IMG/VR virus record: IMGVR_UViG_3300017987_005500
Strand: one strand, 5' to 3'
DNA: 64,000 nucleotides
Source of the DNA: a virus
Lineage: Duplodnaviria; Heunggongvirae; Uroviricota; Caudoviricetes
Every line of letters starts with the position of its first letter. The first letter of the stretch is position 1. Both the position numbers and the translations under genes were made by a program. The notes below the pieces were generated by a model. The model saw only the letters and a list, made by a program, of their open reading frames with translations, had not been told where the DNA came from and made no database searches. This document shows positions 22,001 to 61,120 of this stretch, in pieces.

Positions 22001-23139
22001 AAACAATTCTCAGAAAGACAGTAGGTGAAATTGAGGAATTAATTGGTATTGATGATGATGAAGATTCAACTGATATTTTAGCTGGACAACTTATCAAGAA
22101 AAGTCCAGGTGGAACAATTGTTGACATTGAAGTATTTTCAAATATGACAACTGATAAATTTCCTCAACTTAAATCATTAATTTCAAGAACAAGAAAGAGA
22201 TATAAAAACCCAACTAAGAAATTTTTGATTAAAGGAAGAAGCATTAATGGAATGTTGATAAGATTTAAAATAGAACAAGAACTTCCAATTGGTCTTGGCG
22301 ATAAACTTGCTAATAGACATGGTAATAAAGGTATTGTCTCATTAGTTGAAAAAGAAGAAAATATGCCAAGGACTCCGTGGGGAGATAGAGTTGAAATTGT
22401 ATTAAATCCTCTTGGAATTATTGGAAGAATGAATGTTGGTCAAATTTATGAATTGTATTGTGGATTAATCGGCAGAGAACTTGCTAAAAAATCAATCTCA
22501 TTAAATTCAAAATCAAATGTAGTTAATTTATTTAAAGCTATATTATCTCAATTAGATAATACAAAAGATAAACAATTTAGCTCAGATTTTATTAAAAATT
22601 TAAGAGGTCTTAACAGAGCAAATTACAATTTAATGTTAGAGCAAATGAAAAAGACAGGATTCGCCCCAATCGTAGTTCCTCCATTTCAAACTCCTACTTA
22701 TAAAAATATTCTTGCAGCAATGAAAATGTTAGATCTTAAACAAGGATATAAACTTTATTTGCCTGACTATAATACAAAAACGAATTATGAAGTTCCAGTT
22801 GGTTATCAATATATTACAAAACTTGAACATATGGGTGAAGCAAAACTACATGCTAGATCCACAGGACCCGTTACTTCAAAAACATTGCAACCGACTGCAG
22901 GAAAGAGAAGCGAAGGTGGTCAGAGATTAGGCGAAATGGACACATATTCATTTCTTTCATATAATGCGACAAAAACATTATCTGAACTTATGGGTCCTAT
23001 GAGCGATGATATCGTGACCAAAAATGAAATGTTATCTGAAATAATTCAAACAGGTCAAGTTGAATATAAACCAACTAAAACTTCACCGGTAAGGGATCTA
23101 TTAAATGCTTATATGGTTGCCCTTATGCTAGGAAAGTAA
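19054..23139 (+). CDS. rpoB: Multisubunit RNA polymerase beta-like subunit, copy 1, with about 360-aa N-terminal extension
   Basis: DTPEGENIG, IPFVSHNDGNRIMMAASQAKQ, GYNYEDG, GDKLANRHGNKG, LNPLG...RMNVGQ, KLEH, GGQRLGEMD. Confidence 0.95.
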   Translation: MKQYKVLKPYSQVSKKLSFKLERDNPYILFYFPENTTLLETYPALDLRIIDFRNVIVPLTKIPRTRLTSTLKKLYRSLKLYANGTNEKYPENKNLIFDYSTYLRSIDVTYKPISYRQRTGFLIKNLFFMTANQFPENYKKILLYNIVLENNFDPTFVNRKSFPIVQQLKDESFPFDDLLLCITHNNTSTFRLLVRDKEFSLPRTLQYLKTIKPINVEEEEEKELNDASTAVAKKIDVKPKDKKTVNVAVNNYLSTSPADLEKISTGKATKADEERIAVASLLYRTSGDLSKAKKIANSIPPKKRAIALKRIDKQLVDELIPPKDSINLSSEVVVQSSNVQKVVDKKTPEHIFEKRKVDYKVNLTKDMANAFKMLENKEVPLKIEKIKIVEQPDKPGEIDPTDKSTIEVMLKDKSGTSHKIEIDVPRINPETGIFRVYGQKKCLINQIIQCPITFPKPHESRFESSYSKFRIWVVMTKRMNYLHSYMGGCKIPLLIMLSYSYGFERTLKQYGIGYKISDIKPSKDAKFAIKIDDRYIYFTKVDTPLKEQLVNSFIYAKPSKYKIDYEFGSKMYFNELIIAITGRINSTYLIQSNLENIVTPVAHQVLVNQQLPTQLEQIMKYMATNCVAGKEIKRNDLSNQRIRNSEVIVDLAQSRILAAYTEYKEQILSGNNDAVFNIPKGVVLADFNKIENVQTMEYANPLEEMATLSRVTPVGKTVGGIPDKRAITADALNVDKSYFGNIDLYDTPEGENIGVVQQLTVDAHITSARGLFKTIPLSNKENAGLLSTTTSMIPFVSHNDGNRIMMAASQAKQMLPLKNPEPPVVQSGYESLLTNTLSDSFVKKSPCTGKVASISRDAITLVCSNGKKQTIDTTPVHLKSGSGKDTLSVFNPTVIKGQTIKSGNVLAEGSCISQGSIALGRTLLAAVMPYKGYNYEDGVTISETLVHQDKLTSLHGIIVEVTVSENDRLVYISEMGDKTKKGETILRKTVGEIEELIGIDDDEDSTDILAGQLIKKSPGGTIVDIEVFSNMTTDKFPQLKSLISRTRKRYKNPTKKFLIKGRSINGMLIRFKIEQELPIGLGDKLANRHGNKGIVSLVEKEENMPRTPWGDRVEIVLNPLGIIGRMNVGQIYELYCGLIGRELAKKSISLNSKSNVVNLFKAILSQLDNTKDKQFSSDFIKNLRGLNRANYNLMLEQMKKTGFAPIVVPPFQTPTYKNILAAMKMLDLKQGYKLYLPDYNTKTNYEVPVGYQYITKLEHMGEAKLHARSTGPVTSKTLQPTAGKRSEGGQRLGEMDTYSFLSYNATKTLSELMGPMSDDIVTKNEMLSEIIQTGQVEYKPTKTSPVRDLLNAYMVALMLGK

Positions 23140-44540: not shown

Positions 44541-45233
44541 TTGAAATTATGTGAATGTGGTTGTGGGAATGAAGTTTCTAATGATAAAAATAGATTTTTG
44601 AAAGGTCATAATGGTAAAAATAATAAAGGAAGAAAATGGTCTGAAGAATCTAAAAAACAATTTAATGATATAGATAATATTATATCTAGATTTGAAAGTA
44701 AAATTGAAATTGATAAAAATACAGGTTGTTGGGAATGGATAGGTGGAAAATGTCAAGGATATGGTGGGTTTAGTTGTTGCATAAAAGGAAAATATAAAAC
44801 ATATCCTGCTCACAGATTTAGTTATATGATGTATATAGGAGAAATTCCAGATGGACTTCAAATTCTTCATGAATGTAATAATAAAAGTTGTGTGAATCCA
44901 GATCATATATATGCAGGTACACATCAAGATAACATGAGAGATTTAAGAAATGCTGGAACACTTTCAGGAAAAAATAATCCAAATTATGGAAAAATTTCAT
45001 CTAAAGAAAAAAAAGAAAAAATTAAAAATGGAGTTAAAAAATGGATTTCAAATAATCCTGATTTCAAACCAGAAGAATGGACAAGTAAAGAATGGATAAT
45101 CACTAAACCAAATGGTGATGAATTAATTATTAAAAATTTAACTAAATATTGTAGAGATAATGATATCAATCTAACTAGTTGTTCTAAGGGATATTATATT
45201 AAAGATAATGGATGGAAGGTAGAAAGATTATGA
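44541..45233 (+). CDS. Free-standing HNH homing endonuclease
   Basis: LCECGCG...RFLKGHN, GCWEW.G, AHRFSY, ILHECNNKSCVNPDH..AGT..DN; TTG start with AGGAGGG RBS. Confidence 0.88.
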   Translation: MKLCECGCGNEVSNDKNRFLKGHNGKNNKGRKWSEESKKQFNDIDNIISRFESKIEIDKNTGCWEWIGGKCQGYGGFSCCIKGKYKTYPAHRFSYMMYIGEIPDGLQILHECNNKSCVNPDHIYAGTHQDNMRDLRNAGTLSGKNNPNYGKISSKEKKEKIKNGVKKWISNNPDFKPEEWTSKEWIITKPNGDELIIKNLTKYCRDNDINLTSCSKGYYIKDNGWKVERL

Positions 45234-46255
45234 ATAAAATTCATATAGTTAACTTATTAGTAACAAGAAAATGCAATCTTAGGTGCTCATATTGTGGTAT
45301 AGTAAGAAATATGAAGACATTACCAAAAACATATCCAAAGATGAAACATTATTATGATAACGAAATGAGCACTAAATTAATTTTAAATTTTCTTGAAAAA
45401 CTTAAAAACCATAATCCCGACGCATTTGTAATTATTTACGGAGGTGAGCCAATATTGCGCTCAGATTTATTTGAAATTGTGCAATATTGCAATGATCTTA
45501 AATTAGGTTATACAATTATAAGCAATAATACAATTGAACTTCAGGATAAACTTGACGACTTATTAAATACTGTACATGTTGCGGGTTATACTGCCTCAAT
45601 AGATCCACTTATTATATCTGATTCAACTGACGTTGATCGTAGAGTTAAAAGCGAACAAGGTCTTGAAAGATTACTTCAATATAAGTATATAATTAAAGAT
45701 CTTGTTGCTGAGATTACAGTTGATAAAAATAATGTTCCATATTTATATGACCTTGTTAAAAAGTTATCAGATTTGGGAATTAATAGTGATATTACATTCA
45801 TAGATACAGCTAAGAGTCCTTATTATGATTTTTCAAATATAAATGATCCAAATCTTTTGATTAAAGACACAATTGAAGTAAAGAAAATATTTGACCGAAT
45901 TATTAAAGATAATCTAGATGTACATATGGCGAAGAGTTTATTACCCAAAATAGTTGAAGCTCTTCCATCTAAATTAGACTGTAAAATGGAAAAAGATATT
46001 AATACAATATGTGTTGATGCTGATGGGACAATGAGACTTTGTCTTCGGATAAAAGGAACGTCAACACCAAGAGTAGAAATTGACAAATTATTTGCACAGA
46101 ATGGAAAATTGGATCCATTCTTTATAGACTCAATTAAAACTGACAAACAAAACTATTGTCGCTTATGTAATCATACATGTTATATTATGGGAGACCTTAT
46201 ATCCAAAGGGGTGAGTTCTTCAGAATTAGTACATGAGGACAAGAGAGGAGACTAA
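45212..46255 (+). CDS. Radical SAM protein with Twitch/SPASM-like C-terminus
   Basis: CNLRCSYC, GGEP, SID; C-terminal C..ICVDADG..LC...CRLCNHTC. Confidence 0.85.
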   Translation: MEGRKIMNKIHIVNLLVTRKCNLRCSYCGIVRNMKTLPKTYPKMKHYYDNEMSTKLILNFLEKLKNHNPDAFVIIYGGEPILRSDLFEIVQYCNDLKLGYTIISNNTIELQDKLDDLLNTVHVAGYTASIDPLIISDSTDVDRRVKSEQGLERLLQYKYIIKDLVAEITVDKNNVPYLYDLVKKLSDLGINSDITFIDTAKSPYYDFSNINDPNLLIKDTIEVKKIFDRIIKDNLDVHMAKSLLPKIVEALPSKLDCKMEKDINTICVDADGTMRLCLRIKGTSTPRVEIDKLFAQNGKLDPFFIDSIKTDKQNYCRLCNHTCYIMGDLISKGVSSSELVHEDKRGD

Positions 46256-46582: not shown

Positions 46583-46930
46583 ATGCTTTCATCAAAAATT
46601 ATCCCTTTAAGTAAAGTTATAATAGACACAACATCAGGAGAGATCTTAATAAAGTCAGACGACACTACTATTACAATTAAAGGAGTCGATTTTGAAAATG
46701 AAGTATCTAAATTTTCAAGAATTGATATTGATAGTGGTAAAGCTATTATTACTGAAACAGAGACTCGTAAATCTCCAGACTTATCTTTATTTATGGTAAA
46801 TATGTATAACATGATTTACGATGAAACACAACAAAATCCGAAATTATCAAAACATTCGGATTTATTATTCAATAATTTACTTAACCGAATGAGACAGGAA
46901 GTTAAAAAATATGGGAAAACTCTTAGATGA
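46583..46930 (+). CDS. Hypothetical protein
   Basis: Coupled ORF. Confidence 0.45.
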   Translation: MLSSKIIPLSKVIIDTTSGEILIKSDDTTITIKGVDFENEVSKFSRIDIDSGKAIITETETRKSPDLSLFMVNMYNMIYDETQQNPKLSKHSDLLFNNLLNRMRQEVKKYGKTLR

Positions 46931-47276
46931 AATTATTGGCGAACTTAAAGGAAAAGATATTGATCAACAAGTTAAAGAAATTTGTGACGAAATAACTGAA
47001 CAAGAAAAGGATTCAATTGAAAATGAAGAATTTCTTCCTGTAGGACCTAATATATTCTTAGCTCTTAGTTGCCCAGGAAGAATTAAAGGTGAAGTTGGAT
47101 TTCTGACTTTAGAAAGAGAACTTGTTGATGAGTATTTAGTTGGGTTTTGGGCAATAACACCTAAAATTCCAAATGATAAATTAAAACGATATAGAACATG
47201 GAGTGTAAAGGAAGTCAATTGTAAGCGAATTATTAGAGCATTCGCTGAGAGACTAAAGTACGTTAGAGGAGAGTAA
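46911..47276 (+). CDS. Hypothetical protein
   Basis: Coupled ORF directly upstream of the E2 gene. Confidence 0.5.
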   Translation: MGKLLDEIIGELKGKDIDQQVKEICDEITEQEKDSIENEEFLPVGPNIFLALSCPGRIKGEVGFLTLERELVDEYLVGFWAITPKIPNDKLKRYRTWSVKEVNCKRIIRAFAERLKYVRGE

Positions 47277-47281
47277 AGGTT

Positions 47282-50200
47282 ATGTCTAGTGAACATATAC
47301 GAGTTGGATTGAAAAATCCAACTGACAAAAATGAAATTGTTATTAATAGACATCATATAAGTGTTGTTAAATCTTCGACTTATTTTAACAATCGTTATAG
47401 AGACGATAAAAAATTAGATAAATGTGCAGTTGAGAGAATTGCGACTTACAATTCACGCACAAAAATTAATAATCTCCTAAGTGTAAATGACTCTGCATCT
47501 GGAGAGATCTTGCCAGCAAATTGTAGATATTTTCATAAAACAGCTAATGGCAGCACCATTCTTGTTATGGAAGAAGCTCCAAGTATAAGAACAATTAAAG
47601 TAAAATTGGATTTACTTTCTGAAGCTGTTGAACTTCAGAAAGTAGGTAAGTTAGAAAAATATGGTTATGTTGAATTCTTAGAGCAAAGTCCACCAGGACC
47701 ATATGAAATAGCTCTATCTTTTCCTTATCTGGTTTATGTAATTGATATTAATAAAGATAAAGGAGTTGAAAAATTCAATGTATATTTTAGAGTTCATCCA
47801 TTAACATCATTAGATGATTATTTGATCAGACCGTTTCTGACGAATATGGATAACTCTGAAGTATGTACAGGTAATATAAAGCTACCAAAGACAAAAGGGC
47901 GACGAACTCTCATTGATATTACTGAGACTTATATTACTGCATGGTGGGAATATGAATTTAATACAGATTTATCTGAAAATTATAATAAGTATGCAGAGAA
48001 GGGACCACCTGAATTACAGGGATATTTAAGTTGGGCATATTTCACACAATACGATCCAATGTTTATATTTTCAATTGACTGGTTAATGTATGATTATAAA
48101 TTAAGCAGTGTAATTGAAAATAAATTAGTGAATCGTGGTCAATCTTCAGGAGAATATACATTTGAGGATCTAATGAAAATGTTGACCACAACATCAAGTG
48201 GACTTCCAACACATGACCGATATACTGATAATATTATAGTTAAAGATAAAATCTTATCAGTTGGTGATGATGTAATTATAGATGATGAGTTGTTATATGT
48301 ATTAGCAATTGATTTGAATAATGCATCTGGTGAAGTAAGTGCTATATTATTTGAGGATGAAAAAGATAATGAGATTGTTAAGAAATATAACGATGAATTG
48401 AGCGAAAAGATATATGCTCATATTAATAATATCTCAGATACTTTTAATCATGGAGGTCATGAATTTAAAGTTAATGATGTTGTCGAAGTTGATATACATA
48501 ACCATGACAGCTCAATGGTTCCTCAATATAGAATATTTAAAGGGTTTCGTAAAACAAGAGATGGGATTGTTGAAGTTAGACTTGGCAAAGCTTATCATAT
48601 TGAGGAATCAATAAATATAAGACCTATTGATATGGATAAACTTACAATTGATGGGGTTAAACCTCAAAAAGATGTTAAGTATTTACTTAAACGATGCGGT
48701 TCATCTGGTTTTCAATTTACCAAGACATTTGTTGCTGAGTTTACTGAGATTAAAGTTTTGAGTTCTGGAAAAATAGCATCTATATTTAGATATACAGATG
48801 AATATGGAGATCGTCAGAAAATTAGTCTTGATATGGTTGGAACTCCATCTTACAATGTATTAGACTTGCCCAATTATTCAACTCCTGAAGTATTTATTGT
48901 TGGACGAAGATTATATACACAAAACTTAAGAGAACCATGGGCATTCTTTACAAACGATAAAAGAGATCCTATTTATTACAATAGGAAAATTCAATCCCAT
49001 AACACAAAGGAACTTATTGAATATATAACCACACAGAAAGATAGACTCTACATCCCAGGTATTCATGAGAATATAGACTTTAAAGTTGGGGATGACATTA
49101 TTGTAGCTAACTGGGAAAACCCATATGAAATGACTATTATTCAAACTATCATTAGATTTGAATATAAAAATGACAGATTTACTGGAGATTTTCATGCAAA
49201 TGTAGTATGTAAAGATCATCAAGGTATTGAAAGATGGTATACAATTGTAGAGATATCCTTAACTGGACCAAAAGTAAATGTAGGACTTATAAGGAAAGCT
49301 TATAGGACATATGATGGAATTGTTGCCGGATCTAAGATCAGAGCGAAAGTTCCAAGACTTGGAATGTTCCCAAAGAAAGATGTAAATAAGATTGTTGCTT
49401 TTATCGAAACTGGAGCAACTCCATTAATGATTTGTAGCAATTTATGTACCTTATGGGCAAATCAAGAAACATATGAAAAGTTTGACATTTTCCCACCGAC
49501 TCATCCAAAGTATTATGGAATGAAAATAGCTCCATATGACACGAAGAAGATTAAACGACAATTTGGAGATTATATCTATCACAAAGAAGATGATAGATTG
49601 TATTACAATGTCATGGAAAATAATCAATATTTGAGAGCTGTTCGAGTAGATCCTTCTTTTAGTGCAAATGATGAACTTTATAAAGGATCTGAGTTGGAAA
49701 ACAAATTAGTATATTATGGTTTTCAACTTCCAAGAATCACTCCGACTGTAAGACAGACTCTTAATTACGAAGCACAATTTCAAACTATTTATGGACCACA
49801 TATTGAAACAACGACAAGTATTGTTCCAACTTCAAGAATGATTCCAATGCCTTATGTAAATACGGAAAGGAATTTTGAATTAGAACTTGAAAGAACTGAA
49901 AATGAGATCATTCAAGTAACTCAACCAACTCCACCAACTCAAGATATTGATGAGGTTGAGGATGAGGATTTTCCTGAAGAAGAATCTGAAAAGACTATGA
50001 ATGATATTGAACAGGTTGCTAGTGGAGCTTCTTCTCCGCCAGCTCCTGCAGGAAGATTTGATAGACTTAGAGAAAGACCTCAAATGACATGGACTAATAC
50101 AGCAACATCTTCAGATTATTATAGAGAATATAATCAAGAGATTATGTTCAGACGATTACATGAACCTCAGGCATTTAGATCTTTTGACAATCCAGAGCAA

Positions 50201-50566
50201 ACCGATGAGGAAATAGAGCAAGCTCAAGCATTACAAGAAGAAGCTCCAGAACAATCTGCTGAAGAAGCTGCTGATGAGATCTGGGAAGAAATGGAGGAAA
50301 GAGGGGAAGTTCAAGCAATACCTGCTCCAGACCGAGAAAATGCAGAAGACATAAATGAAAATCCTGACCGAGAGGAAATGGAAGAAAATGCTGCTGAAGA
50401 AACGACTAATGAAATGGCACAAGATGTATTTGAAGAAACAATAGTTAATGAAGATCCAGACATTGACCATGTTCAACAAGTTGTTGAAAATGACATTCAA
50501 ATATCTATTGAGGATGCCCAACAAGCAATGCATGATGAAATGAGAATGAGAAATTTAGAATCATAA
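47282..50566 (+). CDS. Giant protein with N-terminal prokaryotic E2 (Prok-E2_D/PRTRC protein B-like) domain and acidic disordered tail
   Basis: LP..CR, EEAP..RT, LSFPYLVY, PL.SLDD.L..P.LTN....VCTG (Cys195), WW..FN.DL; sits next to JAB, E1 and Ubl genes. Confidence 0.72.
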   Translation: MSSEHIRVGLKNPTDKNEIVINRHHISVVKSSTYFNNRYRDDKKLDKCAVERIATYNSRTKINNLLSVNDSASGEILPANCRYFHKTANGSTILVMEEAPSIRTIKVKLDLLSEAVELQKVGKLEKYGYVEFLEQSPPGPYEIALSFPYLVYVIDINKDKGVEKFNVYFRVHPLTSLDDYLIRPFLTNMDNSEVCTGNIKLPKTKGRRTLIDITETYITAWWEYEFNTDLSENYNKYAEKGPPELQGYLSWAYFTQYDPMFIFSIDWLMYDYKLSSVIENKLVNRGQSSGEYTFEDLMKMLTTTSSGLPTHDRYTDNIIVKDKILSVGDDVIIDDELLYVLAIDLNNASGEVSAILFEDEKDNEIVKKYNDELSEKIYAHINNISDTFNHGGHEFKVNDVVEVDIHNHDSSMVPQYRIFKGFRKTRDGIVEVRLGKAYHIEESINIRPIDMDKLTIDGVKPQKDVKYLLKRCGSSGFQFTKTFVAEFTEIKVLSSGKIASIFRYTDEYGDRQKISLDMVGTPSYNVLDLPNYSTPEVFIVGRRLYTQNLREPWAFFTNDKRDPIYYNRKIQSHNTKELIEYITTQKDRLYIPGIHENIDFKVGDDIIVANWENPYEMTIIQTIIRFEYKNDRFTGDFHANVVCKDHQGIERWYTIVEISLTGPKVNVGLIRKAYRTYDGIVAGSKIRAKVPRLGMFPKKDVNKIVAFIETGATPLMICSNLCTLWANQETYEKFDIFPPTHPKYYGMKIAPYDTKKIKRQFGDYIYHKEDDRLYYNVMENNQYLRAVRVDPSFSANDELYKGSELENKLVYYGFQLPRITPTVRQTLNYEAQFQTIYGPHIETTTSIVPTSRMIPMPYVNTERNFELELERTENEIIQVTQPTPPTQDIDEVEDEDFPEEESEKTMNDIEQVASGASSPPAPAGRFDRLRERPQMTWTNTATSSDYYREYNQEIMFRRLHEPQAFRSFDNPEQTDEEIEQAQALQEEAPEQSAEEAADEIWEEMEERGEVQAIPAPDRENAEDINENPDREEMEENAAEETTNEMAQDVFEETIVNEDPDIDHVQQVVENDIQISIEDAQQAMHDEMRMRNLES

Positions 50567-50578
50567 GGAGAAAATTAA

Positions 50579-51646
50579 ATGTTTCCAGTATATGTTAATG
50601 ACGGAACCCAAGAAGTACCTGATGCAGATATATTTTACATAATTGGTAAAGATGGAATTTACTTAAGGAAAAAACTTGGAAGACTTGATGCAATTGTCCC
50701 GGTTGATAAAATCTCAACACTTGGAGATGTTGAGACAATGGCGACATATGACTTACCTCCAATTCCTGCATTGCATTTTGCTAAAGTTGTCTCATTCTTT
50801 AAAGTAATATATGAGATGCATAAGAGTGAGGCAATTGTATTGGTACATTTTGATGAGGAAAATGAAAAGTTTAAACTTCAATGTCCACATCAAAAAGTTA
50901 CAAGAGCGGGACTTGATTATATAAGAACTGTAACATTTCCTGGATATACAAAAGTATGTACTATTCATAGTCATTCGGATATGAGTGCTTTTCATTCAGG
51001 AACCGACGATAAAGATGAAGAAGACACAGATGGACTTCATATCACGGTAGGTCATTTAGACTGGGATGATGGAATGTTTGATTTATCAGTTTCTGTAGTC
51101 ATCAATGGAAAAAGATTTATGGTTGAAGCGAGTGATTATATTGAGGGTCTTACACAAGTTGAAGTTGAAGAAACGAAACCTCATTATATAAGCACCTGGT
51201 TTAATTCATATTTAAATGATGATTCAGATCCTGACGTTAAATCGGGTTATAAAATGGGTCTTCCTGATTCAAAAATGACATTCAATAAAAAATGGTTAGA
51301 CTATGTGACCGTTGAGTCTGTAAGACGTGGTTATTATATGGGCAGTGTTCATTATGGAGGTGGTGGACATAGAGTCCATAGTGTTGGAAGTCCTCATTAC
51401 AAAAATAACCAAAAGATAATCGAACATCATTTTGGTGCTGACAACAACGATGAAGATACACATGATTTCAATCCCTGTTTGAATTGTGTATTTTCTGAAC
51501 ATAAACTTCTTCAAGAAGTTGAAGATGAAGATATTGACCCTAATGATGTTGAGGGTTATGACATTGTTGGTGGAGATGAACACAATCACAGACCAATCAC
51601 ACATGAAAATCAATTATTAGACGGAGGTGATGAGCATGGAAATTAA
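50579..51646 (+). CDS. JAB/JAMM metalloprotease (deubiquitinase-like, PRTRC protein A-like)
   Basis: Catalytic E (HKSEA) plus exact HxH-x7-S-x2-D (HSHSDMSAFHSGTD), then DE..G.H...G. Confidence 0.9.
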   Translation: MFPVYVNDGTQEVPDADIFYIIGKDGIYLRKKLGRLDAIVPVDKISTLGDVETMATYDLPPIPALHFAKVVSFFKVIYEMHKSEAIVLVHFDEENEKFKLQCPHQKVTRAGLDYIRTVTFPGYTKVCTIHSHSDMSAFHSGTDDKDEEDTDGLHITVGHLDWDDGMFDLSVSVVINGKRFMVEASDYIEGLTQVEVEETKPHYISTWFNSYLNDDSDPDVKSGYKMGLPDSKMTFNKKWLDYVTVESVRRGYYMGSVHYGGGGHRVHSVGSPHYKNNQKIIEHHFGADNNDEDTHDFNPCLNCVFSEHKLLQEVEDEDIDPNDVEGYDIVGGDEHNHRPITHENQLLDGGDEHGN

Positions 51647-52328
51647 GAATATTAAGATAATTGGTCTTGGTGGAATTGGTTCAATTCTTACTGACAAAAT
51701 TTGCAGATTTATGTCATTTGGTAAATTTGCAAATGATGACTGGACAATCACTTTAATTGATGGTGATGACTACGAACCCAAAAACAGGGAAAGACAAGAT
51801 TTTATATACTTAAAGAACAAAGCATTATCCAAACAAGAAGAGCTTAATGCCAAGTATGGTGTCAATACAGTTCAATATGTTGTTGAGTCTTATATTGATC
51901 AAGACAATGTAAAACAATATATTGGATCAGGCGATTTAGTCTTTATGTGTGTGGATAATCACCAATCCCGTAAATTGATATCCGACCATGCGGGAACGTT
52001 AGACGACGTTATAATTGTTTCTGGAGGAAATGACTACATTGATGGAAATGTGCAAGTATACGGAAGAGAAAATGGAAAAGACATTTCCCCATCATTAACA
52101 TCTTTTCATCCTGAAATAGACAGTCCTGATGATAAACACCCAAGCGATATGTCATGTGAAGAATTGGCAGACTCAGTTCCTCAATTATACTTTGCCAATT
52201 TGACTGCGGCAACAGTTATGTGCTGGGTTTTATATGCTTTGATTCAGGAAAAATTTAACTTTGGAAAACCTGAAGTTTATTTTGACATCGAGATGATGTC
52301 AATTGTAGGCAAGATGAGAGCTGTTTAA
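51627..52328 (+). CDS. ThiF/E1-like activating enzyme
   Basis: IIGLGGIGS, DGD.YE.KN.ERQ, K, CVDN..SR, SGGN; candidate catalytic Cys177 (MSCEE) followed by PQL..AN. Confidence 0.9.
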   Translation: MMSMEIKNIKIIGLGGIGSILTDKICRFMSFGKFANDDWTITLIDGDDYEPKNRERQDFIYLKNKALSKQEELNAKYGVNTVQYVVESYIDQDNVKQYIGSGDLVFMCVDNHQSRKLISDHAGTLDDVIIVSGGNDYIDGNVQVYGRENGKDISPSLTSFHPEIDSPDDKHPSDMSCEELADSVPQLYFANLTAATVMCWVLYALIQEKFNFGKPEVYFDIEMMSIVGKMRAV

Positions 52329-52360: not shown

Positions 52361-52888
52361 ATGGCATCAAAGTACACAAAAGAGAAACTGTCCAAACTTA
52401 ACAATGTTGAACTCCGAGAAATTTGCAAGAAAAAGAAAATTCCTGGAATGTCAAAGAAACGTAAAGATGTTATGGTTGACGCAATACTTCTTGCTCATGG
52501 CGGAACGAAAGCAAATGCCAAATCTTCCAAGAAAGCTAAGACTCTCGGAATTGGAAAAGATGGCGAACCAACTAAAAATGCTTCCGAAGCAAAGAAAGAT
52601 GACAAACTTCAAGCTGCAACATTTACTCTTAGCAGTGTTTTGACAAAACCATCTGCAAAATATGGTGATCGAACAACCACGACAATTCGCGTATCATCCG
52701 GCGCAGCTGCAGGCGACTTCCCTGTAACAGGAAGAACAGTATCTTCTGTTAAATCATTCCTCTCTGAAGTTCTCAATATTTCCAAAATGTCTTCTCCAAT
52801 CGTCAATGGAAAACAGGTTGAAGATAATTATGTAATCAAACAAGGTGATGAACTTGAGTTCTTGAAACCAGCAGGTCAGAAAGGGTAA
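52361..52888 (+). CDS. Ubiquitin-like (beta-grasp) protein with N-terminal HeH/Rho-N/SAP-like domain and C-terminal Gly
   Basis: aa 5-45 L.KL...ELREICKK..IPG.SK.RK..MVDAIL; aa 105-175 G.TV..V..L...LNI..VNG..V...Y.IKQGDELEF.K.AGQKG. Confidence 0.82.
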   Translation: MASKYTKEKLSKLNNVELREICKKKKIPGMSKKRKDVMVDAILLAHGGTKANAKSSKKAKTLGIGKDGEPTKNASEAKKDDKLQAATFTLSSVLTKPSAKYGDRTTTTIRVSSGAAAGDFPVTGRTVSSVKSFLSEVLNISKMSSPIVNGKQVEDNYVIKQGDELEFLKPAGQKG

Positions 52889-53734: not shown

Positions 53735-54607
53735 ATGCGTATTTGCGTTATTGGGTTGGGCACAATAGGTGGATTCTTTTCACAATTTATTTCTGACTTT
53801 AGAGATGTGACTCATTTGACTATTATAGATTATGATAAAGTTGAAAAGAAAAATCTAAAAAATACTGTTTTCAAGAGAAAACATATTGGGATGTTAAAGA
53901 TTGACGCAGTTGAAGAAATTATCAAAGAAACAAATGAAAAAATTACCCTATCGAAGTATGACATAGAGTTTAATGAAGACAAATTTGATTTAACGCCATA
54001 TGATTATGTGGTTGATTGTAGGGACTTCACTTACAATCGAAGAAAAGTTAACATAAGACTTTATTTTTCAGGAAGACAATTAATTGTAGATTGCAGAAAG
54101 AAAGCGACCTACGAAACTCCAATGGAAGGTTATTATACAACAAAGCTTACAAAAACAGATGTTATTGGAGCTGTTAATGCTGTTGCATTATTATTTAACA
54201 AAAAGATTGTGAATAAATTTATAGACGAAGAGATAGTATATCGTTATGAACTTGATGGATCGAATATCGAAGCATGTGAATATATTGATCAAAGATCAAA
54301 AACTCCTGATATATTATATGAGTCCTGTGATGCGGAGACAAATAAAGGAGAAGACTCTCTAATTAATTTACATGAGAATCTCCAACCAATTTTGGATATG
54401 AATACAAAATCTGCTACGACATTATTCGTTGGACCAAAAGACTTTCCAACTATGGAAAAAGAATTTCCGGCTGGAACATTAACATCGTTTTCAGATGTTA
54501 TAAAATCCCTTGTGAATGCTATTAATTTACCATTTGCATATAATTACTATGTAGTATCTTCAGGGAAAAATGTTATTGAGTTGATTCCTGATACAGGAGC
54601 TGCTTAG
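53735..54607 (+). CDS. Second ThiF/E1-like enzyme with probable C-terminal beta-grasp (Ubl-like) domain
   Basis: VIGLGTIG, IDYDKVE.KNL, G..K, VVDC.D; C-terminus ends VIELIPDTGAA. Confidence 0.78.
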   Translation: MRICVIGLGTIGGFFSQFISDFRDVTHLTIIDYDKVEKKNLKNTVFKRKHIGMLKIDAVEEIIKETNEKITLSKYDIEFNEDKFDLTPYDYVVDCRDFTYNRRKVNIRLYFSGRQLIVDCRKKATYETPMEGYYTTKLTKTDVIGAVNAVALLFNKKIVNKFIDEEIVYRYELDGSNIEACEYIDQRSKTPDILYESCDAETNKGEDSLINLHENLQPILDMNTKSATTLFVGPKDFPTMEKEFPAGTLTSFSDVIKSLVNAINLPFAYNYYVVSSGKNVIELIPDTGAA

Positions 54608-54609
54608 AA

Positions 54610-54951
54610 ATGTTAAAAGAAAATTATTTGGTTAAGAGAAAGATAGTACCCAAAAGGGTATTTTACAGAGGTAGAGAGACAGAAATAGAGGAAATTGATG
54701 ACCATTTAATTATAGAGAAATATAGAGTTGTATTAATAGACGACAAAATTATGAAAATACTTTTAGTTGATTGTCGTCATCCGAATGCTGACCCGTATAC
54801 CGGAGAATATTGCCTACCATACACTCTAAAAGGACTTAAGTTTACAAAAGAGAATCTTAAAAAGATAGACAAATCTCTTGAATTATATAACCTCTTAAAT
54901 TGTTACGAAATTCCATATGGACATTTCAAAGTTGTTGGAGGAAGATTATGA
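54610..54951 (+). CDS. Minimal E2/UBC-like protein
   Basis: HPNADPYTGEYCLP matches the UBC HPN-x7/8-C-L active-site signature (Cys68); starts 2 nt after the E1-like gene. Confidence 0.68.
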   Translation: MLKENYLVKRKIVPKRVFYRGRETEIEEIDDHLIIEKYRVVLIDDKIMKILLVDCRHPNADPYTGEYCLPYTLKGLKFTKENLKKIDKSLELYNLLNCYEIPYGHFKVVGGRL

Positions 54952-55152: not shown

Positions 55153-55371
55153 ATGGAAGGAATCTTAGGAGAGCAAGTACGTAAAGAAATTGAAGCGATT
55201 ATAGATGAAAAGATAAATGATAAAGAAAATAAACTGACAAAAGACGAACTCAATGAGATTGTCTCTTCTTTGATTCCTTCATTAGATGAACTTGTTGCTA
55301 AACAAGTAAAACACCATATGGTTCTTATAGCACAGTATGTGATTGAACAACATGGAGGGAAATCAAATTAA
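55153..55371 (+). CDS. Small helical protein coupled to beta' copy 2
   Basis: RBS aggag; TAATG overlap. Confidence 0.55.
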   Translation: MEGILGEQVRKEIEAIIDEKINDKENKLTKDELNEIVSSLIPSLDELVAKQVKHHMVLIAQYVIEQHGGKSN

Positions 55372-58067
55372 TGCCAAAACTACTGGATCAGAAAAAATTC
55401 TGTGAAGATCTTAAGGAAGTGACATCTCCTAAACCAATAATTAAGAGAAGATTTCATCCTGATGGACTCTTCTCTGAGCAAATCTTTGGTCCTATTAAGA
55501 ATTACACATGTCAATGTGGTACGTATTATGGTGTTTCAAAATCTGGAGGAACTTGTCCAATATGCGAAGTTGACATTTTAAGTTCTGTGGAAAGAAGAAG
55601 AAGGTTTGCAAAAATCACTTTGCCAATTCCAGTTGTAAATCCTTTATTTTATGATTTACTTGTGAATTTAGGTGGAAGTGATTTAAAGAAAGTCATTGAT
55701 GTTCTCATGAAAGATGAGAAAAGTATTTTGTATATGCATGAAGATGAATATGTTGCAACAACCGAAGCTTCTGTAATTCCAGAAGGAGCAGCAAGAATTG
55801 ATCGAATTGAAGCTATTGAAGAATTAATTAAAACATTAGCTACTGGACTTTCAGCTGATGGAATTCCTGAATGGAAAATGGTACTTGATAATATTGATAA
55901 ATTGCTTTTACATGAAATTGTAGTATTACCAGCTGATTTAAGACCTGCTTCAAGAGGAATTGATAGCGCACATCAAAAGGCAGATACCATTAATAGATAT
56001 TATACGCAAATTCTCACAAAACGAGAGATAATGCTTTCAACTATAATTGACATTAAGCAGGATAAATCAATATATTATCAATATTATACTCCTCTACAAA
56101 AAGATGTGAATGAATTATATAATCACATCTTAGAAAAATTATCAAAGAAGGAAGGACTTATACGGGGAAATATATTAGGAAAGAGAATTGATTTCTCTGG
56201 CAGAGCAGTTATAATTCCCGACCCGTTACTTAAACTTGATCATTGCTGTTTACCATATCTTATGGTACTTGAATTATTCAAAATTCAAATAGCAAAGAAG
56301 CTTATTGAAAAGAATAAATTCAAGATGATTAATCAAGCAGTTGACTTTATTGAAAAATGTATGGAACTCGACAGTCCCGTATTATTTGAAATTGCTAAGG
56401 AAGTGATTGAAGGTGAAGTATGTATGTTGAATAGACAACCTTCTTTACACAGACTTAGCATGACTGGATTTTATATTACAATATCTTTAGATAAAGTAAT
56501 TAAAATTCACCCATTATCTTGCTCAGGATTTAATGCAGATTTTGATGGTGATCAAATGGCAGTTTATATTCCAATAACTGAAAAAGCAAAACAAGAAATC
56601 ATTGAAAAATGTTTGATCACAAGAAATTTCATAAATCCATCAAATGGAAGTTTGGCACCAACACCCTCGCAAGATATAATATTAGGAATATATGCTTTAA
56701 CCTCAAATGTTTTCCCCGACTTAAGAAATGAGGTTGAGTTTAAGGGCAAAATGATCACGGAAGGGAGGAAAATATTTAATGCCTGCCTTCCTGATGATTA
56801 TCCGATTATTGACGATGTAGTTATAAGCAAGAGACTTATTAGAATATTAAATGACGTAGAGTCAAAATATATATTCTCAGTTACTACAAAAGTTCTTGAT
56901 CATATTAAAAGAGTTGGATTTAAATATTCAACTCTATTTGGAGCAACTATTTCCTTAGGTCAATGTAAGATTGATGGAGTTAGGAGTTTCAGAGATACGT
57001 TATACGAAAGTGATGAAGTTTCAACACAATTAGAGCAAGTTAATGGTTCTTTAGCTACAAATATGCTTAAAGAAAATTTTGCATATTCATATATGATAGA
57101 GTCAGGATCACGAGGTTCTTGGGATCAAGCACGACAAATACTCCTTACGAGAGGGTTTATTTCAAATTTTAATTTGGAAATATTACCTGAACCAATTAAA
57201 CATTCATTGATTGAAGGGTTGACAAGAAGAGAATTCTTTCTTTCAACTTATGGATGTCGTAAAGGATTATTAGACGTTGCCTTGAATACCGGGACCTCAG
57301 GATACCTTTCTCGAAAACTGATTTTTGCATGTGTAAATGTAGAAATTGATCTTGAATTAGAAGATTGTGGTACTGAAGATTGTTTAGAAGTTTATGTTGA
57401 TGATGCACCAAAAGCAATTCTTCTAATAGATAGATATTATGTAAAAGATGGTGAGTATATTAAGATAACAATGGATAATTTCAAAGATATAGTTGGAGAA
57501 GTTATCAAAATAAGAAGTCCAATATTTTGTAAATCTCCTCAGATATGTCATAAGTGTTATGGGGATTTATGGAAAAAACTTCACAGCAGATATGTTGGAG
57601 TAATTGCTGCTCAATCATTAGGAGAATGTAATACTCAATTAGTTCTTAGGACATTTCATACGTCGGGTGTTGCAACTTCCAAAGGAGATATGCATCAAGA
57701 TGATATTGTTGGGGATTTATCAAATGCCTCAAAGAGTCTTCATGATGTAAAGAATAGCAATTATAAAGATATTGTTGATAAGTTATTTAAGATTTACAAT
57801 ACAAATCGAAAAATTTACCATGTTCATTTTGAATGTGTAGTTTCACAGTTAATGTGGGCAGGGTATCGAAAATGGAGACTCCTTGAAAATAGAGATTCTG
57901 TGCCACCTGAGTATATCTCAGTTCAAACGGTACCGAGTAATGAGAGTTGGTTATTAGGACTCGCATTTTCAAGACCAAGGCAGCATATTGTAAGAGGATT
58001 ATTCAAAGCTGGTAATTATCAAGGTGTTATGGATAAACTATTAACAGGAGAGGATATACATAGATGA
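55371..58067 (+). CDS. rpoC: Multisubunit RNA polymerase beta'-like subunit, copy 2 (putative non-virion RNAP)
   Basis: DGLFSEQIFGP, zinc ribbon CQCG..CPIC, LGKRIDFSGRAVI, LNRQPSLHR, NADFDGDQM, TSGYLSRK, CHKCYG, TQLVLRTFH. Confidence 0.96.
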   Translation: MPKLLDQKKFCEDLKEVTSPKPIIKRRFHPDGLFSEQIFGPIKNYTCQCGTYYGVSKSGGTCPICEVDILSSVERRRRFAKITLPIPVVNPLFYDLLVNLGGSDLKKVIDVLMKDEKSILYMHEDEYVATTEASVIPEGAARIDRIEAIEELIKTLATGLSADGIPEWKMVLDNIDKLLLHEIVVLPADLRPASRGIDSAHQKADTINRYYTQILTKREIMLSTIIDIKQDKSIYYQYYTPLQKDVNELYNHILEKLSKKEGLIRGNILGKRIDFSGRAVIIPDPLLKLDHCCLPYLMVLELFKIQIAKKLIEKNKFKMINQAVDFIEKCMELDSPVLFEIAKEVIEGEVCMLNRQPSLHRLSMTGFYITISLDKVIKIHPLSCSGFNADFDGDQMAVYIPITEKAKQEIIEKCLITRNFINPSNGSLAPTPSQDIILGIYALTSNVFPDLRNEVEFKGKMITEGRKIFNACLPDDYPIIDDVVISKRLIRILNDVESKYIFSVTTKVLDHIKRVGFKYSTLFGATISLGQCKIDGVRSFRDTLYESDEVSTQLEQVNGSLATNMLKENFAYSYMIESGSRGSWDQARQILLTRGFISNFNLEILPEPIKHSLIEGLTRREFFLSTYGCRKGLLDVALNTGTSGYLSRKLIFACVNVEIDLELEDCGTEDCLEVYVDDAPKAILLIDRYYVKDGEYIKITMDNFKDIVGEVIKIRSPIFCKSPQICHKCYGDLWKKLHSRYVGVIAAQSLGECNTQLVLRTFHTSGVATSKGDMHQDDIVGDLSNASKSLHDVKNSNYKDIVDKLFKIYNTNRKIYHVHFECVVSQLMWAGYRKWRLLENRDSVPPEYISVQTVPSNESWLLGLAFSRPRQHIVRGLFKAGNYQGVMDKLLTGEDIHR

Positions 58068-61000
58068 AAGTGATTAACCCAAACTTTGTGCTTGATGAAG
58101 AAAATAATATTTTCAGGATTCGAGAAAATGAATTTGGGTCACTTGAGTCCACAATTCGGGAGATGCTAAAACCGGCCGAAGCGCTTGGATTTAGTGTCCC
58201 CGAGTTCGGGATTCGTGATTCAAGGTTTTCGTCACGAGATCTTGCAAGAACAGTAAAACAGAAATTAGTTATTAAATTAGCTAAGGGAGAACATGTTTTA
58301 GATCTCTCAATGGATATTCCAAAATTGATTGATGGAAATTATATCATCATAAATGGAAAACAGAAGATCCCTCAATTTCAATTATTTGATGTTCCAATTG
58401 TAACTCGTGGTAAAAATATAAAAATAAGAACAAATGTAGCAACTGTCGTAGTTGTCCCTAAGAAAGAAGAACCATATATTCATATTACTTTCTTAGGAAA
58501 AATGGTTCCTTTATCATTAATGTTATTTGCATATTTTGGAATTGAAGAAGTAAATAGAAAATTTAACTTAAGTTCTCAAACACCAGCTGACACAATTCCA
58601 ACAAATATGTATGATAAATTGATATCTGATTTAACAATGTTCTATGCTGAATCAGATGGTTATACTCAAGATGACTTTATCAAAGAAGTGGGAAGAATTT
58701 ATTCTCAGTATAACTCAAAATCAAAAGGTGAAGATGTTATGTACGCCTTAGATTTGATAATGGAAACTGATACAATATCAAAGAAACTCTTTATCACAGA
58801 TACTATATTGGATGAAGTTGTTTATGCAATTGAGCACCCTGACGATTTTGATGACACAGACTTTATCAATAAGAGAATAAGATGTTATGAATATATTCTT
58901 TTATCAAAAATATCCAAATATATATTTGACTTATGTATGTCAAATAGGACTGCGAGACAACCGAAATTTAATGTAAATTCAACAAAGATATTATCAGAGT
59001 GTAATGTATCTGACATTGTCCAATTTGATTTTTCAATAAATCCAGTTGAAGAACTTACAAGACTTTCAAGAACAAGTCTCATAGGTCCGGGTGGTTTTAA
59101 AAGAGAAAATGTTCCAGAGCATCTTAGAGATATTTCAAATAGTATGTTTGGCAGAGTTTGCTCAGTTGATACTCCTGATAGAGATAACTGTGGAATATTA
59201 CAAAACTTAGTACCAAATGTTAAACTTGATGAAAATTTGAAATTCACAGATGAAATATTAGAGAAGCAACCCATTTCAATTCCAGTTGCAATGGTACCTT
59301 TCTCAGAGCATGATGATCAAACCAGACTTCAAATGGCATCATCTCAAATGAGACAATCTGTATTAACAAAAAGTTTTGATTCACCTGATGTATATTCTGG
59401 GAGTGAATGGTTATATTCAAAAGAAACCCAGTTTTTGAAAGCAGCAAAGAAAGATGGTGAAGTTGTTTATACAGATGATAATTATATAATTGTTGTCTAT
59501 GATGATAATGAAGTTGATATAATCAATGTTTCTTATAGAAAGATATATGTAGGAAATATGGATTGGATGAAAATATATGTGAAGCAAGGAGATAAAGTTA
59601 AGAAAAATGATATTCTTGCTGAGAGTATGTTTATGAATGATGGTAAAATCAACTTTGGTCGAAAGTTGTTAACTGCTGTAATTCCTTATTTTGGATATAA
59701 CTATGAGGACGGAATTGTTATATCTGATAGAATAGTTGAGGATGATGTTTTCACTTCAATGCATTATGTTGATTTATCATTTACAATTCCACCAAATAAA
59801 GTTTTATTAAGTTTATCTAATGATGGTGAATATAAACCATTACCTGAAGTTAAAGATCCTGGAGGAGGAAAACCTATAATTCATGATAGGATAGGAGTTG
59901 GAAAACCTTATGCTATAATGAAAGATATTAATTCAGGTATACATTGTTATAGTGTATTTGATGAAGAAATTAAACTGACCGCTAAAAAACAAGTGTTAAT
60001 CTCAGAGGTTAATATTTACCCGAACACTTGGAACACTGAAATGCCTCAATATGACAAATGGGTTAAAGATAAAATTGAAAGTCAAAAGAAAAAGCAAAAA
60101 GACTTTCTTAAAATGTTAAAAGATTATATACCAAAATCTCAAATGAGTAAAATTATAAGAGAGGAAGGACTTAATAAATTCTCTCAAGTTGGAAAATATA
60201 GATATAAGAGAGAAGAGATAAATGGTATTCATATTGAGATGTATGGGATTTTTGAAAGAAAAATAAATCCTGGTGATAAGATTGCAAATCGACATGGTAA
60301 TAAAGGTGTTATTTCAAAGATAATGCCAAGAGAAAAAATGCCAAAACTTCCTGATGGGAGACACGTGGATATTTGTATCAACCCACTTGGTATTATAAGC
60401 AGGATGAATATAGGACAAATATTTGAGTTGCATCTCTCAATGTCCGTAAATGATTTAAGACAAAAGATGTTAGAGTCATTGAAAAATGGCGGAAAAAGAG
60501 AAGACCTTATCAATTATTTCCTTGGTTATATCAAATGCATTGACAATACTGAGAATAATTGGTATACTACACAAATGGTGGAGAAGCTAAAAGATATTGA
60601 AATTGACGAAGATTTCATCAATAACATATTTGTAATTCAACCTCCATTTGAATCAGTGACATTAGAGATGCTTGATCAGGCAATGCAATATACAAATACG
60701 GACTACGATTATAAATTACTTGATCCAATGTCAAAAAGTGAAATATTCAATGATATCGCAGTCGGGTATATATATTTCTTTAAAATGGTCCATATTGCTG
60801 AAAACAGATTAGCAGCAAGAGGAATTGGATCTTACTCAAGAAAGACTTTGCAACCTCTTGGGGGAAGAAGGAATAAAGGTGGGCAGAGATCTGGAGAAAT
60901 GGAAATGGCATGTTTAATAGGTCATGACGCTGCCACAAACTTAAATGAATTTACGACTACGAAGTCAGACTGCATTGATAGGAAAAATAGATATATCAGA

Positions 61001-61120
61001 GCAGAGATTGAGTCTACAGAGTTTGACCCAGATAAAGATGATGATGGATGCAATATTGCTGAGTCAGTTCTCTTATTTGAATCATCTCTAATATGTGTAG
61101 GACTTGATCCAAAGGATTAA
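58064..61120 (+). CDS. rpoB: Multisubunit RNA polymerase beta-like subunit, copy 2
   Basis: GPGG, DTPDRDNCG, PFSEHDDQTRLQMASSQMRQ, GYNYEDG, GDKIANRHGNKG, INPLG...RMNIGQ, GGQRSGEME. Confidence 0.96.
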   Translation: MKVINPNFVLDEENNIFRIRENEFGSLESTIREMLKPAEALGFSVPEFGIRDSRFSSRDLARTVKQKLVIKLAKGEHVLDLSMDIPKLIDGNYIIINGKQKIPQFQLFDVPIVTRGKNIKIRTNVATVVVVPKKEEPYIHITFLGKMVPLSLMLFAYFGIEEVNRKFNLSSQTPADTIPTNMYDKLISDLTMFYAESDGYTQDDFIKEVGRIYSQYNSKSKGEDVMYALDLIMETDTISKKLFITDTILDEVVYAIEHPDDFDDTDFINKRIRCYEYILLSKISKYIFDLCMSNRTARQPKFNVNSTKILSECNVSDIVQFDFSINPVEELTRLSRTSLIGPGGFKRENVPEHLRDISNSMFGRVCSVDTPDRDNCGILQNLVPNVKLDENLKFTDEILEKQPISIPVAMVPFSEHDDQTRLQMASSQMRQSVLTKSFDSPDVYSGSEWLYSKETQFLKAAKKDGEVVYTDDNYIIVVYDDNEVDIINVSYRKIYVGNMDWMKIYVKQGDKVKKNDILAESMFMNDGKINFGRKLLTAVIPYFGYNYEDGIVISDRIVEDDVFTSMHYVDLSFTIPPNKVLLSLSNDGEYKPLPEVKDPGGGKPIIHDRIGVGKPYAIMKDINSGIHCYSVFDEEIKLTAKKQVLISEVNIYPNTWNTEMPQYDKWVKDKIESQKKKQKDFLKMLKDYIPKSQMSKIIREEGLNKFSQVGKYRYKREEINGIHIEMYGIFERKINPGDKIANRHGNKGVISKIMPREKMPKLPDGRHVDICINPLGIISRMNIGQIFELHLSMSVNDLRQKMLESLKNGGKREDLINYFLGYIKCIDNTENNWYTTQMVEKLKDIEIDEDFINNIFVIQPPFESVTLEMLDQAMQYTNTDYDYKLLDPMSKSEIFNDIAVGYIYFFKMVHIAENRLAARGIGSYSRKTLQPLGGRRNKGGQRSGEMEMACLIGHDAATNLNEFTTTKSDCIDRKNRYIRAEIESTEFDPDKDDDGCNIAESVLLFESSLICVGLDPKD

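Follow-up and report, generated by a model that had tools for sequence, protein, structure and literature searches.

What does a phage do with a ubiquitin-activating (E1)-type enzyme that carries what looks like a ubiquitin-like (Ubl) domain on its own C-terminus and is followed directly by a miniature protein resembling ubiquitin-conjugating (E2) enzymes? This question is raised by the IMG/VR record IMGVR_UViG_3300017987_005500 (Caudoviricetes), of which a stretch of 64,000 nucleotides (nt) was analysed here (the window). A sequence-only reading had pointed to a second ThiF-fold protein in this DNA and, 2 nt downstream, to a 113-amino-acid (aa) open reading frame (ORF) with an HPN/Cys signature. 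We found both ORFs exactly as described: the 290-aa enzyme (E1-2) ends ...VIELIPDTGAA, its stop codon lies 2 nt from the ATG of the 113-aa protein (mini-E2), and the latter contains HPNADPYTGEYCLP. The observation of an E1–Ubl-like fusion next to an HPN-bearing mini-E2 is confirmed, and the interpretation first given to it is supported in part. With a probability of about 0.55, we read the two genes as a self-contained conjugation pair, consisting of a ubiquitin-like E1–Ubl fusion and its E2, that is core to an uncultured clade of jumbo phages.

A conserved gene pair of uncultured jumbo phages

A database search with E1-2 returned 62 proteins of 269–306 aa (most 282–295) with 33–70% identity, nearly all at a query coverage of 98–100%; the alignment, residue counts and AlphaFold2 (AF2) model of E1-2 used throughout are based on 61 full-length homologues. 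The association with the small E2 is strict. A hidden Markov model (HMM) of mini-E2 detects exactly one copy, directly downstream, in each locus that extends past E1-2 (39/39, including the window), and the stop and start codons of the two genes overlap or abut in all 39. In locus L013, mini-E2 is a 228-aa form with a loop insertion, in which HPN...C-L-P is intact. The pair always lies downstream of a PRTRC-like module of a JAB peptidase, a first E1 (E1-1) and a ThiS-like Ubl (module 1) and upstream of the genes for the β' and β subunits of RNA polymerase (RNAP). This gene order (Table 1) is kept down to 33–36% E1-2 identity, in IMG/VR and on metagenome contigs of up to 312 kb.

Outside these phages, a collection of prokaryote genomes (185,579 species) yielded no full-length relative, all matches being generic ThiF ones that cover aa 1 to ~124, and a tblastn search of GenBank phages gave no match to E1-2 or mini-E2. 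The RNAP β' sequence found only matches of 28–32% identity among GenBank phages, so that there is no cultured relative. E1-2 and mini-E2 are a core gene pair of an uncultured clade of very large (jumbo) phages.

Adenylation domain, C-terminal tail and mini-E2

The Pfam ThiF profile (PF00899) matches aa 2–117 of E1-2 with 55.7 bits, well above its cut-off of 28.1. In the AF2 model (mean predicted local distance difference test, pLDDT, 88), residues 1–180 form a Rossmann-type fold that superposes on the solved adenylation domains of MoeB, ThiF, UBA3, SAE2, UBA5, MccB and Atg7, with Cap2, MoeB and ThiF as the nearest structures; both the E1-2 family and its E1 fold are genuine. Invariant in the 61 sequences are G7xG9xxG12, D32, D34, N40, K55, D94-C95-R96, T99, Y100 and R102, while D97 is present in 57, which provides the full set of nucleotide- and Mg-binding residues (GxGxxG, the Asp after β2, Lys and DxxD). 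HMM alignments to ThiF and MoeB show two departures. The SNLQRQ of these enzymes corresponds to KNLKNS in E1-2; of the usual NxxRQ, the Asn is kept (N40), but the position of the Arg, a phosphate contact, is taken by Asn43 in 57/61 sequences. Likewise, DCTDN corresponds to DCRDF, and the invariant Arg96 introduced there is a possible stand-in for the missing Arg. Apart from this one residue, the adenylation set appears intact in the alignment.

A conserved catalytic Cys was not found in the crossover loop among the 61 homologues. The candidates put forward earlier, C181 and C198, are both rejected, the first being a gap in 48/61 sequences and the second variable. C120 is a Cys in 34/61 (56%), and the sole invariant Cys, C95, lies within the Mg-site motif (DCRD); no other conserved Cys, and no CxxC pairs as in a structural zinc site, are present in the alignment. 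Conserved in the loop are instead G132 and Y134, both invariant, and Y126, found in at least 90% of the sequences. A precedent is BubCD, an E1 without a crossover-loop Cys in which the sole invariant loop residue, Tyr370, is needed for conjugation (PMC11601596).

Behind the adenylation domain follows a low-confidence linker (block pLDDT 59–71 over aa 181–210), with N211, L212, I219 and N223 conserved at its end and in the adjoining helix. The C-terminal region is then modelled with a block pLDDT of 81–95, and DSSP assigns β228–232, β240–244, α252–262, β272–277 and β280–285, the same β-β-α-β-β order that had been read from the sequence. A structure search of the ESM Atlas with aa 226–290 (the Atlas's own model) returned ten rows, among them a 'ubiquitin-like domain-containing protein' with a template modelling (TM) score of 0.64 over 62 aligned aa, Ufm1 (TM 0.54) and three DUF348/G5-linked ubiquitin-like rows; for such a short domain, these neighbours support a β-grasp fold without being conclusive. 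Sequence comparison is silent on this domain: Pfam gives no match beyond aa 117, the domain profile matches no PDB sequence, hhalign finds no similarity to the module-1 ThiS-like Ubl (probability 0.2%), and membership in the ThiS, MoaD or ubiquitin families was not found. No stand-alone version of aa 209–290 was seen among shorter proteins, by a method of limited sensitivity. Rigid structural alignments of E1-2 to E1s that carry a ubiquitin-fold domain (UFD) end at ~aa 180.

The best-conserved part of the β-grasp-like domain is its last six residues, which read PETGAA in 45 of the 61 homologues, PDTGAA in 10, PETGSA in 3 and PEIGSA in 1, with aberrant ends in 2. Pro, Thr, Gly and the terminal Ala are each found in 60–61 sequences; the Gly itself (G288), whose conservation the sequence-only reading had made a test of its proposal, is kept in 60/61, and the two Ala behind it are conserved as strongly. 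In 31 distinct loci, each of the four synonymous codons occurs at Thr, at Gly and at both Ala, and three of the Pro codons are found. Selection therefore acts on the tail as a peptide and not on an RNA element at the start of the overlapping mini-E2 gene. Such a conservation pattern is typical of E1 and JAB substrates. In the divergent locus L014 (9920–10861), the E1-2 homologue ends ...ELIAEQAVA, with Pro lost, Gly replaced by Ala and the terminal Ala kept; it still precedes an intact HPN...C mini-E2. The E1-2 tail (PETGAA) and the tail of the module-1 Ubl (PAGxKG) both extend five residues past a conserved Pro.

The mini-E2 model is of high confidence (pLDDT 95, predicted TM score 0.86) and comprises five β-strands, the HPN loop with Cys68 and then one helix (80–90). 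Its homologues were taken from the downstream ORFs at loci recovered via E1-2 and from an exhaustive profile search; a word-index search with mini-E2 matched the query alone, and pattern-based scanning of IMG/VR, starting from this one sequence, gave nothing. In 27 distinct homologues (22–38% identity), P14, I26, H57, P58, N59, C68 and P70 are invariant, which bears out the expectation that HPN and Cys68 would be conserved. At E ≤ 0.001, the profile search yielded 328 cluster representatives, of which 184 also pass E ≤ 1e-10; most are ~110 aa long. H[PA]N...C is present in 136 of the 150 listed representatives (of 328), with 8 intervening residues in 117, and most of the remaining representatives depart from it by extra residues in the loop or by an altered HPN triplet. 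Mini-E2 thus has the HPN ~8 residues before a Cys in the catalytic position that is expected of an E2.

Similarity to known E2s is otherwise low. Foldseek gave no PDB match to the mini-E2 model at E ≤ 0.001; among the weak rows, E2s of the ubiquitin-conjugating (UBC) fold and ubiquitin E2 variants (UEVs) are the commonest family, an enrichment that alone is informative. When the family profile was compared with PDB sequences, the HPN...C segment aligned to HPNVNFKTGEICL of the E2 Pex4 with E = 0.63, which is not significant alone. There is no Pfam, NCBIfam, PADLOC or PHROG match, so that mini-E2 is a member of no curated E2 family, and an ESM Atlas search gave uninformative rows, the Atlas's own model being poor (pLDDT 0.53). 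Helices α1, α3 and α4, the Pro-rich motif that E2s have between strands β3 and β4, and the Trp that shortly follows their Cys are all absent; conserved instead are C-[IL]-P and a distal FNLDxCYFxPW motif. On its model, mini-E2 reads as a UBC fold truncated to a minimal core, with the canonical active-site signature retained, rather than as the 'canonical' HPN-type E2 for which it had been taken. Among metagenomic relatives, P0072, P0145 and P0205 are tandem doubles in which copy 1 has HPN without the Cys and copy 2 is intact, an arrangement that recalls UEV/E2 pairs.

Table 1 Features of the E1-2/mini-E2 locus and of module 1, with their positions in the window
Feature	Position	Strand	Basis
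E1-2, 290-aa ThiF-type adenylating enzyme with fused C-terminal ubiquitin-like domain	53735..54607	+	Pfam ThiF 5.3e-15, homologues, AF2 model, nearest structures
E1-2 adenylation (Rossmann) domain, aa 1-180	53735..54274	+	Invariant residues, 61 sequences
E1-2 crossover-loop region, aa 120-139	54092..54151	+	Column counts; location between β115-119 and helix 140-155
E1-2 variable linker, aa 181-211, then conserved helix, aa 212-225	54275..54409	+	Block pLDDT 59-71, gapped alignment columns
E1-2 β-grasp-like domain, aa 226-290, β-β-α-β-β	54410..54604	+	DSSP on AF2 model; ESM-Atlas neighbours
E1-2 conserved tail, P-D/E-T-G-A-A-COOH	54587..54604	+	Counts in 61 sequences; synonymous codon variation at every position, 31 distinct loci
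Mini-E2, 113-aa minimal UBC-fold protein (as modelled)	54610..54951	+	
Mini-E2 active-site signature, H57-P58-N59 ... C68-L-P70	54778..54819	+	Invariant in 27 homologues; 136/150 representatives
1094-aa protein with N-terminal Prok-E2_D-like domain	47282..50566	+	10/15 homologues match PF14460
JAB/JAMM peptidase, 355 aa (HSHSDMSAFHSGTD)	50579..51646	+	Prok-JAB 5e-5; NCBIfam PRTRC_A 1.7e-11
E1-1, PRTRC-type ThiF	51627..52328	+	PRTRC_ThiF 1.1e-10
Module-1 ThiS-like Ubl, ends ...GDxLEFLKPAGxKG	52361..52888	+	Alignment; weak ThiS match
Conserved order, part 1: radical S-adenosylmethionine (SAM) protein; WYL_2-like protein; ~120-aa protein; ~860-aa protein; JAB; E1-1; ThiS-like Ubl			
Conserved order, part 2: one or two unknown proteins; E1-2; mini-E2; two small ORFs; RNAP β' and β; GCHY-1			

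How the pair could work, and what else could explain it

Folds, motifs, conservation and gene pairing are observed here; from them we infer every chemical step and the target. In E1-2, a flexible linker would join a minimal adenylating domain of ThiF type (~180 aa) to the enzyme's own ~65-aa β-grasp modifier, which ends P-E/D-T-G-A-A-COOH, and the enzyme would dimerise like other minimal ThiF-type E1s. The fused tail would enter the adenylation site in cis or in trans, where its C-terminal carboxylate, that of Ala290 or, after trimming by the JAB, of Gly288, would be adenylated. Without a conserved Cys in the crossover loop, the acyl-adenylate would be handed on via a Tyr134 oxyester (cf. Y370 of BubCD) or straight to Cys68 of the translationally coupled mini-E2, and Asn59 of the HPN would support its transfer to a target amine. 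Either E1-2 in its entirety (33 kDa) might be transferred or, after a cut in the linker, the ~9-kDa β-grasp, with NVIELIPDTGAA (or ...DTG) as the expected tryptic remnant on target lysines; the JAB may trim the tail or deconjugate. E1-2 would then act as its own 'ubiquitin', as CBASS (cyclic oligonucleotide-based antiphage signalling system) conjugates its cGAS-like enzyme. Owing to the constant linkage to the RNAP β'β operon, the transcription or replication machinery of the phage is the first target candidate, although this linkage is only a lead.

That the modifier is the fused domain itself is suggested by the composition of the locus. Module 1 has its own E1, Ubl and E2-like domain, given that E1-1, the ThiS-like Ubl and a Prok-E2_D-like domain are all present, and by parsimony module 2 would need its own modifier as well. 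The only candidate for this role with a conserved Gly-containing C-terminus, as far as the sequences tell, is the tail of E1-2. Precedents exist for several of the steps: an engineered fusion of the Cap2 E1, a linker and the substrate tail puts the tail in the active site, the E2 Cys of Cap2 can replace its E1 Cys in vitro (10.1101/2022.03.31.486616), and ThiS-ThiF fusion proteins are found in nature (PMC1779556; also among the Atlas rows). On the two terminal Ala, the precedents point both ways. In the Type II BilA studied, one Ala after the reactive Gly must be removed (PMC10557695), whereas Cap2 adenylates a tail ending ...TGRFA directly (10.1101/2022.03.31.486616). For the -AA of E1-2, trimming by the JAB and direct activation of the terminal Ala appear equally possible. 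A narrower proposal, which we hold only tentatively, is that the E1 itself serves as the modifier: its unprocessed terminal Ala would be adenylated, passed on as a Tyr134 oxyester or directly to Cys68, and attached to a phage or host target, again with RNAP as first candidate. If true, this would be a phage 'enzyme-as-ubiquitin' that joins a Bub-like E1 to eukaryote-like E2 chemistry, in parallel to a PRTRC-type Ubl system.

The main rival to a self-contained pair is that the C-terminal β-grasp serves mini-E2 as a dock, as the UFD does in Uba1, UBA3 and SAE2. The modifier would then be a separate protein, for example the module-1 ThiS-like Ubl (KG end) or the ~120-aa protein encoded upstream ((R/K)GE end), and the conserved tail would be a binding or autoinhibitory pseudo-substrate element. 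The order of adenylation domain, linker and β-grasp is indeed that of canonical E1s (10.1101/2022.03.31.486616, supplemental discussion; PMC10557695), two further conserved proteins with Gly-containing C-termini are encoded in the same cluster, and the putative β-grasp of E1-2 has no sequence similarity to known Ubls. Yet a dock leaves the exceptionally conserved Gly-containing tail unexplained. We know of no UFD with a conserved C-terminal Gly tail, whereas in E1-2 the last six residues are conserved above all others of the domain, and mini-E2 lacks helix α1, which in established E1–E2 structures is the main UFD contact of canonical E2s. Moreover, a second E1 would be redundant for a module-1 Ubl that has its own E1 and E2-like domain, and module 2 would be left without a modifier. 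Taken together, we consider a docking role unlikely.

Less probable still is sulfur-carrier or other adenylation chemistry, in which the fused β-grasp would be thiocarboxylated (cf. ThiS, MoaD, TtuB, Urm1) for nucleoside or cofactor modification and the Cys of the small protein would act as a persulfide relay. ThiF-ThiS and MoeB-ThiS-rhodanese fusions occur in sulfur pathways, E1-2 shares the missing crossover-loop Cys with MoeB and ThiF, and modification genes, for a radical-SAM protein and a GTP cyclohydrolase (GCHY-1), flank the cluster. The partner protein, however, is modelled with a UBC-like fold and has an invariant HPN...Cys, the active-site signature of a transfer enzyme (E2); the loci examined contain no linked rhodanese, cysteine desulfurase or sulfur-acceptor enzyme; a JAB peptidase and a second conjugation-type module adjoin; and the tail ends GAA, not the GG with which sulfur carriers such as ThiS and MoaD usually end. 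We give least credence of all to the tail being conserved for some other cause, such as a Shine-Dalgarno or nucleotide constraint, a sortase-like (L/I)PxTG signal or an ssrA-like -AA degron, which would reduce E1-2 to an ordinary ThiF enzyme beside an unrelated small protein. GGA-GCN codons often make GGAG just upstream of the mini-E2 start, IPETG resembles LPXTG, and the terminal -AA resembles the end of the ssrA tag that is recognised by ClpX. A ribosome-binding or other nucleotide constraint is nevertheless rejected by the free codon use at Thr, Gly and both Ala (four synonymous codons each) and Pro (three). A sortase signal is rejected as implausible, there being no hydrophobic segment or charged anchor after the motif and no signal peptide, and a degron because it leaves the invariant P..TG and the strict pairing with an HPN/Cys protein unexplained.

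Relation to known systems and to the neighbouring genes

An E1 with a C-terminal Ubl-like domain combined with an E2 of ~110 aa was not found described in the literature searched, and comparison with known systems places E1-2/mini-E2 as a phage-specific, new architecture among prokaryotic ubiquitin-like conjugation systems. In type II CBASS (Cap2/Cap3), one polypeptide comprises both E1 and E2 and the substrate is another protein, whereas the phage E1 carries the substrate-like domain and the E2 has a gene of its own. A crossover-loop Cys (C548) is present in Cap2, whose E2 is without HPN; the phage pair has no such E1 Cys and an E2 with HPN; the substrate tail of Cap2 is disordered, that of E1-2 follows a β-grasp-like domain; and Cap2 belongs to a host defence system, not to the core genes of a phage. 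BubAB/BubCD (6E/DUF6527) resembles the phage pair in a ThiF-like homodimeric E1 without catalytic Cys (the dimer would be shared by E1-2), an invariant crossover-loop Tyr, a linked JAB and, as proposed for E1-2, a Ubl fused to another component of the pathway; BubCD and BubB are both among the structural matches. In Bub, however, it is the E2 that bears the Ubl, at its N-terminus, from which the Ubl has to be released by cleavage; this E2 works with a Ser/His pair (oxyester) where the phage E2 keeps Cys and HPN. No DUF6527 protease was seen in the phage cluster. Bil (BilABCD, bacterial ISG15-like) likewise combines E1, E2, Ubl and JAB, but BilB has a CEHH motif instead of HPN, its Ubl is a separate protein and the system serves host defence. 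With canonical eukaryotic UBC E2s (Pfam UQ_con), mini-E2 shares the HPN...Cys spacing of Pex4 (HPNVNFKTGEICL) and, in its model, the succession of β-meander, active-site loop and helix α2, and such E2s are its top, though weak, structural matches.

PRTRC (ParB-related, ThiF-related cassette) systems of plasmids and integrative elements are the kind to which module 1 belongs (JAB = PRTRC_A, E1-1 = PRTRC_ThiF); no PRTRC model matches E1-2 or mini-E2, and the matched models have no counterpart of the E1–β-grasp fusion or of the HPN E2. ThiS-ThiF and MoeB-ThiS fusions resemble the proposed layout of E1-2 in joining a β-grasp carrier and an adenylating enzyme on one polypeptide. They differ in that the β-grasp is N-terminal in the ThiF fusion of Iyer et al., the putative one of E1-2 being C-terminal, and in that they serve sulfur transfer for thiamine or molybdopterin and do not lie in clusters with an E2 and a JAB. 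The roles so far characterised for bacterial ubiquitin-like conjugation (CBASS Cap2, Bil, Bub) lie in the defence of the host against phages; here, two E1 modules that are not paralogous are retained throughout a clade of phages as conserved core genes, in synteny next to the RNAP genes. If the pair is active, these phages would use Ubl conjugation for their own life cycle, mini-E2 would be the smallest known HPN/Cys E2 and useful for mechanistic work, E1-2 would be a natural case of an E1 that carries its own substrate, and the HPN-type active site, which is typical of eukaryotes, would gain a data point on its distribution elsewhere.

Within module 1, the JAB holds the only JAMM motif that a scan of the window revealed, and its PRTRC match, like that of E1-1, falls below the curated cut-off. 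BLASTP found no significant pairwise similarity between E1-1 and E1-2, which indicates that E1-1 is not a recent paralogue. The module-1 Ubl ends GQKG in the window and, across its family, in the ThiS-like ...VNG...GDxLEFLKPAGxKG. The tail is ...KG in many loci, carries one extra Cys (...KGC) in others and is VILTK in L018; the loci named for these variants are L003, L006, L007, L008, L013, L015, L029, L037 and L018. At least the KGC and VILTK forms would have to be processed at the C-terminus, for which the neighbouring JAB is the presumed enzyme. In the large protein upstream of the JAB, aa 1–320 (47282–48241) match Prok-E2_D (PF14460) in 10 of 15 homologues (best E 1.4e-5), with C195, N188, G197 and R170 invariant, and the remainder of this ~860–1094-aa protein has no family match. 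Just upstream of it, a ~120-aa protein (46911–47276, +) ends ...Y(A/V)K.(Y/F)K(F/Y)(L/V)(R/K)GE in most loci; its homologues (L001, L003, L008, L020, L024, L025, L029 and others) have no Pfam match. This Gly-plus-one C-terminus could be a third processed or conjugatable tail.

The window as a whole is AT-rich (~31% GC), has every large ORF on the + strand and includes phage DNA-metabolism genes for a UvsX-like recombinase, topoisomerase II subunits, an SbcC-like nuclease, helicases and a radical-SAM protein. Two small ORFs on the + strand separate the module-1 Ubl gene from E1-2, and two more lie 3' of mini-E2, ahead of the unsplit RNAP β' and β genes (55371–61120); a Pfam scan of these small flanking ORFs gave nothing useful. 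The window contains two separate pairs of large ORFs (16028–23139 and 55371–61120), encoding 1008 + 1361 aa and 898 + 1018 aa, respectively, and the 898 + 1018 aa pair was confirmed as unsplit RNAP β' and β via Pfam matches of homologues. A radical-SAM gene (45212–46255 in the window) lies on one side of the Ubl/RNAP block and a gene for GCHY-1 (type 2 GTP cyclohydrolase I) on the other, the latter positioned downstream of RNAP β in L001, L003 and L005. As far as their sequences suggest, these two flanking genes may belong to a 7-deazaguanine-type DNA or nucleotide modification pathway.

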